Virus genome (UHGV): UHGV-0176705
Reading direction: 5' to 3' (one strand)
Source of the DNA: a virus
DNA length: 30,191 bases
The position numbers and the translations under genes were made by a program. Shown here one piece after another: positions 4,172 to 8,747 of the stretch; positions within the stretch are counted from its first letter, which is position 1, and each line of letters opens with the position of its first letter. The notes under the pieces were generated by a model. The model saw only the letters and a list, made by a program, of their open reading frames with translations. It searched no databases and was not told the DNA's origin.

Positions 4172-5401
4172 TTAGGCTACCAGAGCATTTGATCTTTGAG
4201 CTTGAACGTAATCACTCCACCATTGCATCAAACTCTGTCGCTCTATCAGATATTCTGCACGATTGTATGCTGCGATAATTTCATCTTTTTTCGAGTGGGC
4301 AAGCGCTGCCTCAAGAACTTCAGCTCTGAATTTACCAGACTCCTCTGCCGCTGTTCGTGCAATAGAACGCATACCGTGAGCTACAAGCTCGCCTCCGAAC
4401 CCCATTCGGATGATAGCTGCGTTGGCTGTTTGTTCATGCATATGATTAAGAGGCGCTTTTATGCTGGGGAAAACCCATTCTCTATGCCCACTTATTGATT
4501 TCATTAATTCAAGGATGCGCAAAGCTTCTTTACTCAAAGGAACTTTGTGAAGCTTTTTCATTTTCATGAAATCAGCAGGAATGTTCCAAATGCTGTTGGT
4601 TGTATCAATATCAGACCACCTTGCGCGAACGGCTTCACCCGGACGAACCCATGTCAACAATTGCCATTCAATTAGCATACGTGTTTCCAACCGGATTGAC
4701 GCATTCGTCAAAGATTCCATAAACCTTGGCAATTCGCTTGGGGGAAGGGCAGGCATATTTTGCTTTTTTGGTTTACTGAATCTTTGACCAAGGTTGTCAG
4801 CCGGGTTGAACTCAATAAGTTCTTCAGTAGCTGCCCACCGGAAGATTTCATTCAGACGTGAAATGATACGGCGTAGAGTTTCCAATACGCCTCGTTGCTC
4901 AATAGGATCAAGGTGTTGTTTTAAGAGCTTAGGTCGGATCTCATTGATAGGGACATTACCCAGACCGGGAAAGACATTTCTCTCTAAGCTGCGCCAGATG
5001 TCTGCTGCATGGTCTTGTGAGATACCTGATGTCTTTACCTTCTCATCTAACCATTTCCGCGCTACGGCTTGGAGAGTGTGCTCAGTAGCACTCTTTAATG
5101 CCTTCGCCTTATCGTTGTTATGGATTTGGGGATCAACACCATTTGCCAGAAAGGAGAGATATTCATCACGTAAGGCTCTGGCTCTTGCAAGGGTAAGGTG
5201 AGGATATGTCCCAAGGCTCATTTTGGTTCTTTTCTTGCTCACTGGTACTGCATACCTGAAATACCAATTTTTCTTGCCTCCTTTCGCCAAAGGAGCGATT
5301 CGTAGAATCAGACCATCACCGTCAAACAAGTTGATTTCTTTATCGGCTGGCTTGGTGCTTTTGATTTCAGTGTCAGTGAGCTTCTTAGCGATTTTTGCCA
5401 T
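4172..5401 (-). CDS. int: Tyrosine recombinase/integrase, P4-like family
   Basis: N-terminus MAKIAKKLTDTEIKSTKPADK...GDGLILRIAP...KNWYFRY is typical of P4-type integrases. C-terminal catalytic signature HGMRS (H-x-x-R) and AAYNRAEY (Tyr). Start chosen at the internal ATG at 5401 with GAGGG upstream; the track ORF extends to 5443. Confidence 0.9.
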   Translation of the reverse strand: MAKIAKKLTDTEIKSTKPADKEINLFDGDGLILRIAPLAKGGKKNWYFRYAVPVSKKRTKMSLGTYPHLTLARARALRDEYLSFLANGVDPQIHNNDKAKALKSATEHTLQAVARKWLDEKVKTSGISQDHAADIWRSLERNVFPGLGNVPINEIRPKLLKQHLDPIEQRGVLETLRRIISRLNEIFRWAATEELIEFNPADNLGQRFSKPKKQNMPALPPSELPRFMESLTNASIRLETRMLIEWQLLTWVRPGEAVRARWSDIDTTNSIWNIPADFMKMKKLHKVPLSKEALRILELMKSISGHREWVFPSIKAPLNHMHEQTANAAIIRMGFGGELVAHGMRSIARTAAEESGKFRAEVLEAALAHSKKDEIIAAYNRAEYLIERQSLMQWWSDYVQAQRSNALVA

Positions 5402-5566
5402 TTTGGGACCCTCGGTTTTTGGACCCTTCTTAATGGGTCCCATTCAGGGTGCCATAACTCGTAGTTCTCAGCAATTCTCACTGGACGACAATAGACGTAA
5501 AAAAGCCCGCAGAGCTTGTGCTGTGTGGGCTTAGTAGACTTCATTGAACTTCAAACAACTAAAAAG

Positions 5567-5590
5567 TGGTGCTGGCGGGAGTTGAACCCG
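5567..5590 (-). other. Partial tmRNA (ssrA)-like 3'-end fragment (T-arm, acceptor strand, CCA); putative att core or integration-site remnant
   Basis: The minus strand reads CGGGTTCAACTCCCGCCAGCACCA. About 20 nt match the 3' end of enterobacterial tmRNA as I recall it (GGGTTCAACTCCCGCCAGC), but it ends CAGCACCA rather than CAGCTCCACCA, and the upstream sequence is not tmRNA-like, so this is a fragment and not a gene. Confidence 0.5.
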
Positions 5591-5756
5591 TGATCGGGAT
5601 TTACATAATGTGTTGAATATGAACGATTTATTTTTTTCATGCAAGACATTATGTGCATTTTACGTACATATCGTTGTCCCAGTAACGTCCTGATTCTGTC
5701 CAATATTTTGAAACATGTGTAGAATGTGGGTTTTCGATTTTTGTAGAGAATTTCGG

Positions 5757-6672: not shown

Positions 6673-6996
6673 ATGGTTATAGTCATAGCTAAGCAATTTT
6701 CTAAAACGCCGTTTGGTCGATACACGTCGGACGGTCCTGACAGTGCTGAAAGATTCAGAAGAGATTTTTTGGTTCCAGCCTTTAAATCGAGTGGCGAAAA
6801 AATTGTTGTGGATTTCAGGGGGATTGCTTTAGGTGTGGGGTCTTCTTTCTTGGAGGAAGCCTTCGGTGGGTTAGTGCGTAAAGAGGGGATTGCCAAATCT
6901 GAAGTTAAAACACGCTTAGAAATCGAAAGTGATATGCCATTTTATCAAGAACAGATATCTAAGTTTGTTGATCAAGCAAAACCTGAGTTGGCATAA
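6673..6996 (+). CDS. Small STAS-like protein (resembles DUF4325-type STAS-like domain)
   Basis: 107-aa product from the ATG at 6673, 4 nt after the upstream stop, with AAGGAG at 6659-6664. Motif stretch FGRYTSDG...FRRDFLVP...IVVDFRGIALGVGSSFLEEAFGGL. The family assignment is from memory of the motif pattern, not a search. Confidence 0.45.
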   Translation: MVIVIAKQFSKTPFGRYTSDGPDSAERFRRDFLVPAFKSSGEKIVVDFRGIALGVGSSFLEEAFGGLVRKEGIAKSEVKTRLEIESDMPFYQEQISKFVDQAKPELA

Positions 6997-7009
6997 GGAT
7001 TTTTGAAGA

Positions 7010-7579
7010 ATGGCGCAATATGCATGGATGTTTAGTGTCACAAGCATTGCTTTAGTGTTTGTCGGATGGTGGGTAACGTATTGTAACGCTATGCGAATAG
7101 CTACACGTTCAGAGTCAAAGTCTATAGTTGATTCATTGACGAAACTTGTGAGTGAGCTTGCTGATATTTCGATAGATTATTGGCTTAAAAAAGTATCTCA
7201 CATAACACCCCCTCCTGAATCATTACAGGGTTCAGTTGTTCCTGTTGAGGCTGCTGAGTATCTCACTGTGCTTTTGGCGAAGGCAAGCCAGGCAGGGCAT
7301 TATTTTAAGTTACTGAATATTCGAGGTATTGAAGCTGATGCAAGTAAGCTATCTGCAGTGTTAGAAAAAACAAGCCTTGACTGTGAGATCGCTTATTGTC
7401 AATCAGCTTCAGAACGCTGTGTGAGGGCTAATGAAATTATGTCTGTTTGCATGGAGGTGATAGAAGATATTCACTCTAATTTTCAAGCAGCATACCCTCC
7501 ATCAAAACATATTTCACCTATTGCATGGTATAAAAGTAAAGTCAAAGAAATTGAAGAATGGCACGCTAGTATGTATTAG
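7010..7579 (+). CDS. N-terminally membrane-anchored protein, function unknown
   Basis: 189-aa ORF 13 nt after the upstream stop. One N-terminal hydrophobic helix (WMFSVTSIALVFVGWWVTY), then a soluble helical region. The 3' end overlaps the convergent integrase by 14 nt. Confidence 0.45.
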   Translation: MAQYAWMFSVTSIALVFVGWWVTYCNAMRIATRSESKSIVDSLTKLVSELADISIDYWLKKVSHITPPPESLQGSVVPVEAAEYLTVLLAKASQAGHYFKLLNIRGIEADASKLSAVLEKTSLDCEIAYCQSASERCVRANEIMSVCMEVIEDIHSNFQAAYPPSKHISPIAWYKSKVKEIEEWHASMY

Positions 7580-8747
7580 AGTTGTATGTCTTTACTGATT
7601 TCCCATCGTATTCAGCCAAATACGAACCGTAATGTCGAAAAAGCATTTCCGGTCCTTTATGCCCCATCTGACCAGCAAGCCAGAACAGGTTAACGCCCTG
7701 GCTAATGTGCCGAGTGGCGAACGTGTGGCGTGTCTGGTACGGATTGCGATAGCGTACACCAGCTTTTTTAAGGGTTGGCACCCAGGCTTTTTTTCGGATC
7801 GCGTCCGCATTTGCCCAAGGGGCGCGAGTTTTTGGATCGCTGAATATAAAGTCGCTTTTTAGCGCCGTGTAGGGCTTTTGTGCCTGAAGAGCCGCCAGCG
7901 CTTCGCTGTTCAGTTGCACTTTGCGGGTGCCGGCTTTTGTTTTGGTGCTTTTGATTACCCCGACTACGCTTGCAATCTGAACATGCGCGGTGTTGCCGAT
8001 AAAGTCTATATCCGTCCAGCGCAACGCGCACAATTCTGAGCTGCGCAGTCCGGTATTAAAGGCAAAGCGAAACAGATTTCGCCATTCCGGGTAATGACAG
8101 GCGCCATAGATTGCTGCCGTCTCCGCTGGTGTAAAAGGATCGACCTCGTAATCATCACTGCCTGGTGTGTTGTCCAATACGTGATACCGGCTGGCGCTGA
8201 CTAGCGTGACAGGATTTATTGTTAACAAACCATCGGTCACCGCCTCATCTATGGCGCTGCGCAGGAATGAAAGATTATTGCGGATAGTTTTCAGTTTTGT
8301 TTTTCTGCTGGCGATCCAGTTTTTTAGTACTGCAGGTGTCAGTTCTGATACATGAAATTTATGCAATGCTGACAGCGCCGACAGGCATTTTTCATAACCT
8401 CTAATTGTCGATGGTGACAGGTTACGGTTCTGGCAGATATTCAGGTATTCATCCAGGTAAGATTTTATATTTTTGTTTTTTTTCACTCCCCCGAATAGCT
8501 CCAGCTTTTGGGAGTTGGGGAAGTATTTTGCATACTCGAAGGTACCACTGATAATCTGATTTTTTATTTCTCCCAGCAGGCGCTCGGCATACTTCACACC
8601 GCGCGCGTTTACTTCCATTCTGGAGAGGGGCTCCCGACACAGAACCCCTTTATATGTAAAAGTGATAACCAGGGTGCTACCAGTTTTATGCTGGCGAATA
8701 GTTACTCCTCTAGGGAGAGATAATGATCCTTGTTCTTTCTTGCCCAT
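7566..8747 (-). CDS. int: Tyrosine integrase, lambda Int-like (prophage integrase)
   Basis: Arm-binding-type N-terminus (LPRGVTIRQHKTGSTLVITFTYKG) and catalytic residues in RWTDIDF, TRHTFATRH and LFRHYGSY. Start at the ATG at 8747 with GGAGG 7 nt upstream; the track's TTG at 8774 is less likely. Confidence 0.9.
   Translation of the reverse strand: MGKKEQGSLSLPRGVTIRQHKTGSTLVITFTYKGVLCREPLSRMEVNARGVKYAERLLGEIKNQIISGTFEYAKYFPNSQKLELFGGVKKNKNIKSYLDEYLNICQNRNLSPSTIRGYEKCLSALSALHKFHVSELTPAVLKNWIASRKTKLKTIRNNLSFLRSAIDEAVTDGLLTINPVTLVSASRYHVLDNTPGSDDYEVDPFTPAETAAIYGACHYPEWRNLFRFAFNTGLRSSELCALRWTDIDFIGNTAHVQIASVVGVIKSTKTKAGTRKVQLNSEALAALQAQKPYTALKSDFIFSDPKTRAPWANADAIRKKAWVPTLKKAGVRYRNPYQTRHTFATRHISQGVNLFWLAGQMGHKGPEMLFRHYGSYLAEYDGKSVKTYNSNTY

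Follow-up and report, generated by a model that had tools for sequence, protein, structure and literature searches.

The viral genome UHGV-0176705, of which one strand of 30,191 nucleotides (nt; "the window") was analysed, contains two tyrosine integrase genes that lie on either side of a short fragment of ssrA, the gene for transfer-messenger RNA (tmRNA). This arrangement is very probably the integrase-proximal junction (attL) of a lambdoid prophage, which integrated at the 3′ end of an ssrA gene already bearing a degraded island of the P4-integrase type downstream. Integration at the 3′ ends of ssrA and tRNA genes and the formation of tandem arrays at ssrA are established; islands and prophages sharing this gene in tandem are a textbook case of genome plasticity, and the finding is ordinary in this respect. 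Less ordinary are two details: the ssrA scar is decayed, and next to it lies a small cassette of uncharacterised genes. The features that define the junction are as follows.

1–5565, minus strand: island remnant of the P4-integrase-type ssrA island, AT-rich by composition (33–37% guanine plus cytosine, GC), recognised from Pfam domains
4172–5401, minus strand: P4-type (CP4-57 IntA-like) tyrosine integrase of 409 amino acids, with the Pfam domains Arm-DNA-bind_3, Phage_int_M, and Phage_integrase
5499–5530, minus strand: orphaned hairpin and T-run, a terminator-like site matching the 3′-terminal part of the Rfam IsrM model
5566–5590, minus strand: displaced ssrA 3′ fragment, the attL core of the prophage, with T-stem and T-loop (TTCAACT, 5580–5586) and an acceptor strand with a 3-nt deletion (T357–C359)
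5591–5713, minus strand: phage P arm of the attachment site, conserved in the free phage LMessi (attP) and in strains A41 and numer 3 (attL)
7566–8747, minus strand: prophage integrase, a heterobivalent tyrosine recombinase with the Pfam domains Arm-DNA-bind_2 and Phage_integrase, transcribed toward the att fragment
8702–8911, minus strand: excisionase gene overlapping the start of the integrase gene (phrog_2917, 7.6e-41)

The attL Junction at the Displaced ssrA Fragment

The ssrA fragment (CGGGTTCAACTCCCGCCAGCACCAC, minus strand 5590–5566) lies on the same strand as both integrase genes. In the initial annotation it had been described as a 24-nt match to a tmRNA 3′ end with a single T>A mismatch. 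The match on the minus strand is real, but its form is different: 20 bases (CGGGTTCAACTCCCGCCAGC, 5571–5590) are identical to the T-arm and acceptor strand of E. coli ssrA, and they are followed by a deletion of three nucleotides, T357–C359 in ssrA numbering, so that the sequence CAGCTCCACCACTTTTT of the real ssrA and of the same junction in relatives reads CAGCACCACTTTTT in the window. The exact 20-mer was recovered in none of 100 shuffles, and the same holds for the 27-mer of the ssrA end, which matches 5564–5590 with three mismatches (0/100). The fragment ends approximately 165 nt upstream of the ATG of the P4-type integrase, in agreement with the 166 bp given before. As had also been stated, no tmRNA body adjoins it: ARAGORN detected no tmRNA gene in the window, and the Rfam tmRNA model aligned to only 15 nt of it (12.9 bits).

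In an alignment of six junctions, the attL of the window is composed of the phage P arm, the core, and the island flank, and this flank matches the one that follows ssrA in genomes carrying the island only. The constant block of all junctions starts at CGGG, and the sequences 5′ of this block are specific to the phage lineage. Homology with E. coli strain A41 breaks off exactly at position 5566. Recombination between a phage attP of this kind and an ssrA that already holds the island would be expected to yield this structure.

Two further matches in this region were considered. The Rfam IsrM model (RF02763) aligns to 5499–5721 (minus strand) with 45.4 bits against a threshold of 376 (E = 1e-9), and only about 90 positions at its 3′ end take part. 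An IsrM gene in the window was rejected, because the match is sub-threshold and the homology consists of the 3′ terminal ∼90 nt of the model to the ssrA fragment, the island flank, and the terminator; Salmonella IsrM itself is suggested to overlie such an att scar upstream of a P4-type integrase. A sigma-70-like site on the plus strand (5582–5609; TTGAAC, 16-nt spacer, CATAAT; 9 of 12 positions) overlaps the att core, with its −35 element in the complement of the ssrA T-loop, and is directed into the cargo operon described below. Promoter-like sites in the region were not enriched over shuffled sequences (two found, 4.9 expected).

Occurrence of the Two Elements in Other Genomes and Free Phages

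The island-only junction was searched for in complete E. coli genomes with a query made of the last 250 nt of ssrA and window positions 5565 to 5200 (minus strand). It was found with 100% identity and 100% coverage in many E. coli, and with at least 80% coverage in 959 of the 5426 complete genomes. These matches bear out the earlier suggestion that the island had originally been joined to ssrA, and they provide the comparison with genomes lacking one element that had been proposed along with it, since island-only E. coli carry an intact ssrA joined to the island flank. The hairpin and T-run of 5499–5530 sit about 35 nt past ssrA in these genomes, where the intrinsic terminator of the gene belongs, and are contiguous with ssrA in locus L011. 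The DNA left of 5566 is thus what normally follows an intact ssrA.

The distal end of the island lies beyond the window; in relatives, it consists of IS3 and a truncated ygaQ. The gene order in AMSHJX01, for example, is smpB, ssrA, the P4-type integrase, the hypothetical gene, the response regulator and histidine kinase genes, IS3, ygaQ′, glaH, lhgO, and gabDTP. A second, distal ssrA fragment between the island and ygaQ was found neither in an island-only genome nor in strain numer 3. The second direct repeat to the left that the initial annotation had asked for is therefore not expected, as the relatives with the same island have none. The island appears to have lost its own distal repeat and to be an old, degraded, and apparently immobile remnant.

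Among relatives sharing this junction, E. coli strain numer 3 is the closest; over the first 25 kb of the window, it aligns to 75% of the sequence with 96% identity. It possesses the same island, an undamaged fragment, the same phage integrase, and a 46-kb prophage, followed by intact ssrA and smpB; the end of this ssrA and the fragment form a 32-nt direct repeat (CGGGTTCAACTCCCGCCAGCTCCACCACTTTT), and the phage P′ arm adjoins the intact gene. An intact ssrA at the far prophage end, which had been predicted for the window, is thus present in this strain, the corresponding end of the window's own prophage lying beyond the sequence. The window diverges from the phage of numer 3 from approximately 24.5 kb. 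The prophage of that strain also carries the genes for the A and B subunits of heat-labile enterotoxin type II between its holin and endolysin genes (positions 5272–6417 of L002).

Both elements are found in other company as well. Elsewhere, the neighbour of this phage junction is a P2-like prophage (E. coli A41; Salmonella), a P4-like satellite with psu (ETEC1732), or another island, which marks the phage as the mobile partner. The same island also lies beside an unrelated phage type that carries genes for Dam and an AAA ATPase in the slot between integrase and att. Since each is found with different neighbours, island and phage partners assort independently. The same layout is shared by hundreds of E. 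coli whose genomes have been sequenced, among them the O157, O26, and O103 lineages.

Free phages contain the unrecombined site. The isolated phage LMessi has a contiguous attP that holds the ssrA 3′ end, and the left arm of this site matches window positions 5591–5713, while its right arm matches the sequence adjoining the intact ssrA in strain numer 3. The annotated attP of phiES15 is made of the same 26 nt, and the annotation of LLS names both a "tmRNA pseudogene" and an attP, which holds the ssrA 3′ end. In all these free-phage attP sites the ssrA 3′ end is intact. LMessi, LLS, and PhiR12 of Escherichia and phiES15 of Cronobacter, which encode integrases with Arm-DNA-bind_2 (DUF3596), resemble the window prophage in the integrase (66–89% identity), in the order xis-int-attP, and in the presence of the ssrA 3′ end in attP. 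The window prophage is, however, a different mosaic, which no phage or E. coli record covers fully, and it differs further in bearing a three-gene cargo cassette (K/S/T, see below) between int and att. The record of phage phi467 (LN997803; L009) continues past the att fragment into a CP4-57-type intA and the island gene next to it, which implies that this prophage was delimited across a tandem-array boundary.

A survey with one genome per species, covering Enterobacterales, Aeromonas, Pasteurellaceae, and Gilliamella, yielded 66 usable loci with an integrase 57–89% identical to that of the prophage. An ssrA 3′ fragment is present downstream of the integrase and on the same strand in all 66, at a distance of 77–184 nt in 55 loci and of 1.5–2.95 kb in 11, and no fragment lies within an intact tmRNA gene. 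The small remnants L049 and L079 each hold, within one locus and in this order, an intact tmRNA gene, the integrase, and the fragment. As in the window, a P4-type integrase is encoded within 1.5 kb beyond the fragment in 22 of the 66 loci. Together with the layout of numer 3, the attP of LMessi, and the alignment of six junctions, these data uphold the tandem integration at one locus postulated in the initial annotation. The recombinant structure of the junction and the specificity of both integrase lineages for ssrA can be regarded as established.

The Two Integrases

The open reading frame (ORF) of the island integrase extends over 4172–5443 (minus strand), with the annotated start at 5401. 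Its earlier identification as P4-type was confirmed by the Pfam domains, by a score above the cut-off of NCBIfam PRK09692 (440.6 versus 434 bits), and by similarity to P4 Int (34% identity over the full length, E = 2e-82), with the HxxR and the Y-containing motifs aligned. Judged by its Arm-DNA-bind_3 (DUF4102) N-terminus and its central and catalytic domains, the product of 4172–5401 belongs to the P4-type integrase family.

The gene for the prophage integrase lies 2165 bp away, consistent with the 2.2 kb reported before, in an ORF at 7566–8774 (minus strand) with annotated-type starts at 8747 or 8738. The two proteins share 25% identity over 182 amino acids and are members of different subfamilies. 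The prophage enzyme had been called lambda-type, a designation that is loosely right for its architecture and context: an arm-binding and a catalytic domain, an adjacent xis, and transcription of int toward att. In contrast, the family assignment does not hold, as the identity to lambda Int is only 27% over 185 amino acids (E = 3e-11) and the N-terminus is of the Arm-DNA-bind_2 and not of the lambda type; the protein shares only the general architecture of the lambda Int family and does not belong to it in the strict sense. Its closest homologs in the phage collection are the integrases of phi467, phiES15, LMessi, and PhiR12 (87–89% identity; LMessi 88%), and by these similarities it is assigned to the clade of ssrA-specific phage integrases of the LMessi/phiES15/LLS type.

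Probable Course of Integration and Alternative Explanations

T-stem halves around a 7-nt loop represent the usual geometry of tyrosine-integrase core sites and their overlap. We infer that both elements recombine in the T-arm of the tmRNA gene, where the T-stem halves CGGG and CCCG enclose the 7-nt T-loop TTCAACT. Each element would bring its own copy of the ssrA 3′ end, and the gene would be rebuilt on integration. On arrival of the phage, its P′ arm would take over the completion of ssrA at the far end, outside the window, and the 3′ end and terminator supplied by the island would be pushed to the side of the phage integrase, to remain orphaned at 5499–5590 directly upstream of the island integrase. 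The loss of the three nucleotides T357–C359 from the fragment would have followed this displacement. The core that the fragment is expected to have in common with the distal ssrA end is CGGGTTCAACTCCCGCCAGCTCCACCA(CTTTT). Because the island is fixed at ssrA and degraded (IS3, truncated ygaQ, no distal fragment), we infer that it came first and the phages later. This agrees with the earlier proposal that the prophage inserted between ssrA and the island at a later time, of which the insertion itself is supported by the junction structure and the relatives, whereas the order is deduced.

Several points weigh against this account. The LLS annotators placed attP slightly 5′ of the T-loop, the crossover position proposed here being read from the sequence, and the P arms of the phages are partly similar to ssrA upstream of the T-stem, leaving some ambiguity about where precisely the crossover lies. 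The whole window is not covered by any complete E. coli genome of the collection (best coverage 75–76%), because the prophage is a mosaic, and as the far prophage end lies outside the window, the intact ssrA at that end is deduced from relatives. Moreover, the final structure alone may be compatible with a reverse order, in which the lambdoid phage was the first to integrate at ssrA and the P4-type island later entered the hybrid site of the phage attL: the resulting junction would be identical, and the P4-type integrase might recognise an attL in which the T-arm core is fully kept. We nevertheless consider this order improbable. With no att fragment at its distal end, with IS3 and a truncated ygaQ as its terminus, and with a fixed position directly at ssrA in about 959 genomes, the island looks old and immobile, and it is found beside at least two unrelated phage types, just as the same phage is found beside different islands and prophages.

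P4-type elements are often helper-dependent, and both integrases could belong to one composite element that moves as a unit, such as a phage-satellite pair sharing an att site. The same pairing of integrase types in 22 of the 66 loci and the P4-like satellite with psu among the neighbours of the phage would fit this explanation, but it is even less credible than the reverse order, since island-only, phage-only, and phage-with-other-neighbour configurations are all common, the att core separates the two elements, and the island, in which Pfam recognises only kinase, receiver, and hypothetical genes, is devoid of satellite genes. A chance T-arm-like 24/25-mer, or an att copy of the island itself next to a phage at an unrelated adjacent site, might be suspected from the shortness of the fragment and the 12.9 bits of the Rfam tmRNA match, but is effectively refuted by the absence of matches in 100 shuffles, by homology breakpoints exactly at the fragment, and by the recurrence of the sequence in free-phage attP sites and downstream of all 66 related integrases.

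A lambdoid prophage inserted between ssrA and an older island conforms to known arrays. Among the targets in Islander, which lists 125 tandems (two or more), ssrA shows the strongest enrichment. Tandem arrays at tmRNA genes are characterised by an intact tDNA at one end, a tyrosine integrase for each element, a displaced 3′ fragment of the same orientation at the boundary, and the newest element nearest to the gene, and the one studied here probably has the same make-up. The window itself contains the displaced fragment (5566–5590, minus strand) and the two tyrosine integrases of different subfamilies; the intact ssrA at the other end of the array, which lies beyond it, is seen in the closest relative and in the remnants L049 and L079. 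There are two differences from the arrays in Islander: the older island departs from the rule that each island has its own fragment, as it lacks a distal one, and the fragment between the elements is damaged by the 3-nt deletion.

Loss of T357 from Displaced Fragments

Throughout the 66 surveyed loci the T-arm is nearly invariant, and changes cluster just past CCAGC. The acceptor strand is intact in 49 loci, 12 have the exact ΔT357 allele (CAGCCCACCA), and five contain other lesions, three of which also remove T357; one of these three (L066) has the same TCC loss as the window. A further 3-nt loss, by which T357 is retained, is present in phi467. As no lesion occurs in the attP of the free phages, it is the chromosomal or displaced side that bears the lesions. 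Transport of ΔT357 by phage DNA, which would shift the crossover to the CCA end, was rejected as an explanation, because free-phage attP is intact and the lesion of CP4-57 is on the chromosomal side.

Excision of CP4-57 from E. coli K-12 deletes T357 of ssrA, inactivates tmRNA, and switches ribosome rescue to ArfA (PMC10107115), which places the crossover by IntA 5′ of T357. The window resembles this system in the position of a P4-type integrase immediately downstream of ssrA and in the absence of T357 from the displaced fragment. In contrast to CP4-57, however, its damaged fragment is part of a lambdoid-phage attL, the integrase being of a different family, and lies between two elements, and the lesion comprises three nucleotides instead of one. 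By analogy, excision of the window prophage is predicted to leave an ssrA ending in ...CCAGCACCAC, without the G3:U357 wobble pair and presumably inactive; the cured chromosome should carry ssrA with CAGCACCAC (Δ357–359). Lesions that remove T357 recur in 12 to 15 of the 66 related loci, and this recurrence may reflect selection or mutational bias.

The Cargo Cassette K/S/T

Between approximately 5714 and 7598, the window contains an extra segment of 1.9 kb with three co-oriented genes, here termed K, S, and T, which are convergent with the integrase gene.

5757–6668, plus strand: gene K, 303 amino acids, with an N-terminal STAS-like domain and a GHKL (SpoIIAB/RsbW-like) ATPase/kinase domain; alternative ATG at 5715
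6673–6996, plus strand: gene S, 107 amino acids, Pfam DUF4325 (8.9e-14), STAS-like, with the motif GVGSSFLEEAFGGLVR
7010–7579, plus strand: gene T, 189 amino acids, phrog_30059, with an N-terminal hydrophobic helix and a helical domain; single-pass

The distance from integrase to core is only about 130–325 bp in strains numer 3 and ETEC1732 and in phage LMessi. K/S/T is phage-linked accessory cargo in a variable slot, not a part of the att machinery. This slot, which extends from the integrase stop codon to the P arm, is empty in the same two strains and in LMessi and filled in 11 of the 66 species loci. Its contents include Dam and an AAA ATPase (strains 042, M10, and S6a), an AAA ATPase (phiNP), a DUF4760 gene (O157 and O26 lineages), one unknown gene (LLS), and K/S/T in the window. 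The cargo segment itself is rare in E. coli, being present in one of the 5426 complete genomes (A41, 92% identity) and in one Logan contig; it is kept as a unit in prophages of Salmonella, Yersinia, and Vibrio. K is absent from 50,697 phage records searched by tblastn.

K has a weak Pfam match to HATPase_c_2 and belongs to phrog_3364 (2e-52). The motifs of the N-box (E155, N159, H163), the G1 box (D201xGxG205), and the G2 box (R242GNGS) are invariant. Its AlphaFold2 model (predicted local distance difference test, pLDDT, 86.9; predicted template modelling score, pTM, 0.89) consists of an alpha/beta N-domain and a C-domain with the Bergerat fold, and Foldseek matched it to GyrB, Hsp90, and the anti-sigma kinase SpoIIAB (target TM-score 0.73). 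The motif of S is invariant across four genera. T has no match in Pfam or NCBIfam and no PIN domain; its all-helical model, computed from an alignment of four sequences, is of low confidence (pLDDT 66.9). Neither PADLOC v2 nor NCBIfam matched K, S, or T, and a sequence search of the PDB returned nothing for S and only a marginal RsbW match for K.

The gene order recalls the VapKSC system, in which a 296-amino-acid STAS and GHKL kinase (VapK) and a protein of 116 amino acids (VapS) accompany a PIN toxin that is released on phosphorylation (Chambers et al., EMBO J 2026, PMC13373217). K/S/T shares with VapKSC and CapK-CapS (PMC13373217) the succession of a STAS and GHKL protein of about 300 amino acids, a DUF4325 protein of about 110 amino acids with a conserved serine, and a third gene, as well as the location in mobile or defence-associated DNA. 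The sizes are also similar (296 versus 303 amino acids for VapK and K, 116 versus 107 for VapS and S). VapS likewise matches DUF4325 (2.7e-17), and its conserved S48 aligns with S57 of the S protein, within the GVGSS part of the motif. Unlike the PIN toxin, however, the third gene product T is a single-pass membrane or helical protein. Membership of K/S/T in VapKSC is not claimed, because K resembles VapK only marginally (hhalign E = 1.2e-3, probability 19%, GHKL half only), the pairwise match of S to VapS is not significant (E = 1.3), and the third gene differs. By analogy, K/S/T plausibly works like VapKSC with a membrane effector. Speculatively, infection or DNA damage may activate the GHKL kinase, which would phosphorylate the DUF4325 protein and thereby free the membrane effector.

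A combined reading, according to which K/S/T is an undescribed relative of VapKSC/CapKS with a membrane effector and, at the same time, the loss of T357 is a selected feature, is tentative and in our view rather doubtful. Under its second part, the loss of T357 could be selected instead of being neutral decay, and loss of the prophage would then inactivate tmRNA, leading to a switch of the rescue pathway or constituting an addiction mechanism.

Other Genes of the Island and the Prophage

The window falls into three compositional zones, namely AT-rich DNA (33–37% GC) up to approximately 4 kb, an intermediate zone, and the lambdoid prophage (42–55% GC) up to the right end. The remaining genes are listed below.

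177–1895, plus strand: histidine-kinase-like gene, 572 amino acids, HATPase_c and HEF_HK (Pfam)
1879–3645, plus strand: Response_reg_2 gene (Pfam), 588 amino acids, overlapping the histidine-kinase-like gene at 177–1895
3717–4133, minus strand: hypothetical gene
8912–30191, no strand assigned: rest of the lambdoid prophage, running off the window end, with early genes, a LexA-type repressor, replication genes, Q, a porin moron, tRNA-Arg, lysis genes, and terminase

The overlapping pair at 177–3645 is present in every copy of the island examined, and both of its Pfam families are little characterised; PADLOC gave no significant match for it. In the prophage, adjacent above-threshold Rfam matches to isrK (55.4 bits) and C4 antisense RNA (84.4 bits) at 15206–15394 (plus strand) represent a c4-ant immunity module of the P1/P7 type, located in the region of an ash/Rha-type gene. 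An ORF of 365 amino acids at 20253–21350 (minus strand) occupies the position at which an OmpC porin gene is annotated in related prophages, between Q and a DNA methyltransferase gene. Like this ORF, the tRNA-Arg(TCT) at 23419–23495 (plus strand), upstream of the lysis genes, is a typical lambdoid moron.

Implications

For annotation, the junction fixes the left boundary of the prophage at 5566–5590 and sets the island apart as a separate, immobile remnant. The damaged fragment predicts that curing of the prophage would knock out trans-translation, which is relevant to prophage stability and strain engineering. If the loss of T357 is indeed selected, this phenomenon would not be confined to the P4-type elements in which it was originally reported. 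K/S/T is an unstudied trio that could reasonably be proposed as a new variant within a family of defence systems known only since 2026; if the proposed mode of action is true, it would provide prophage-encoded abortive infection or superinfection exclusion.

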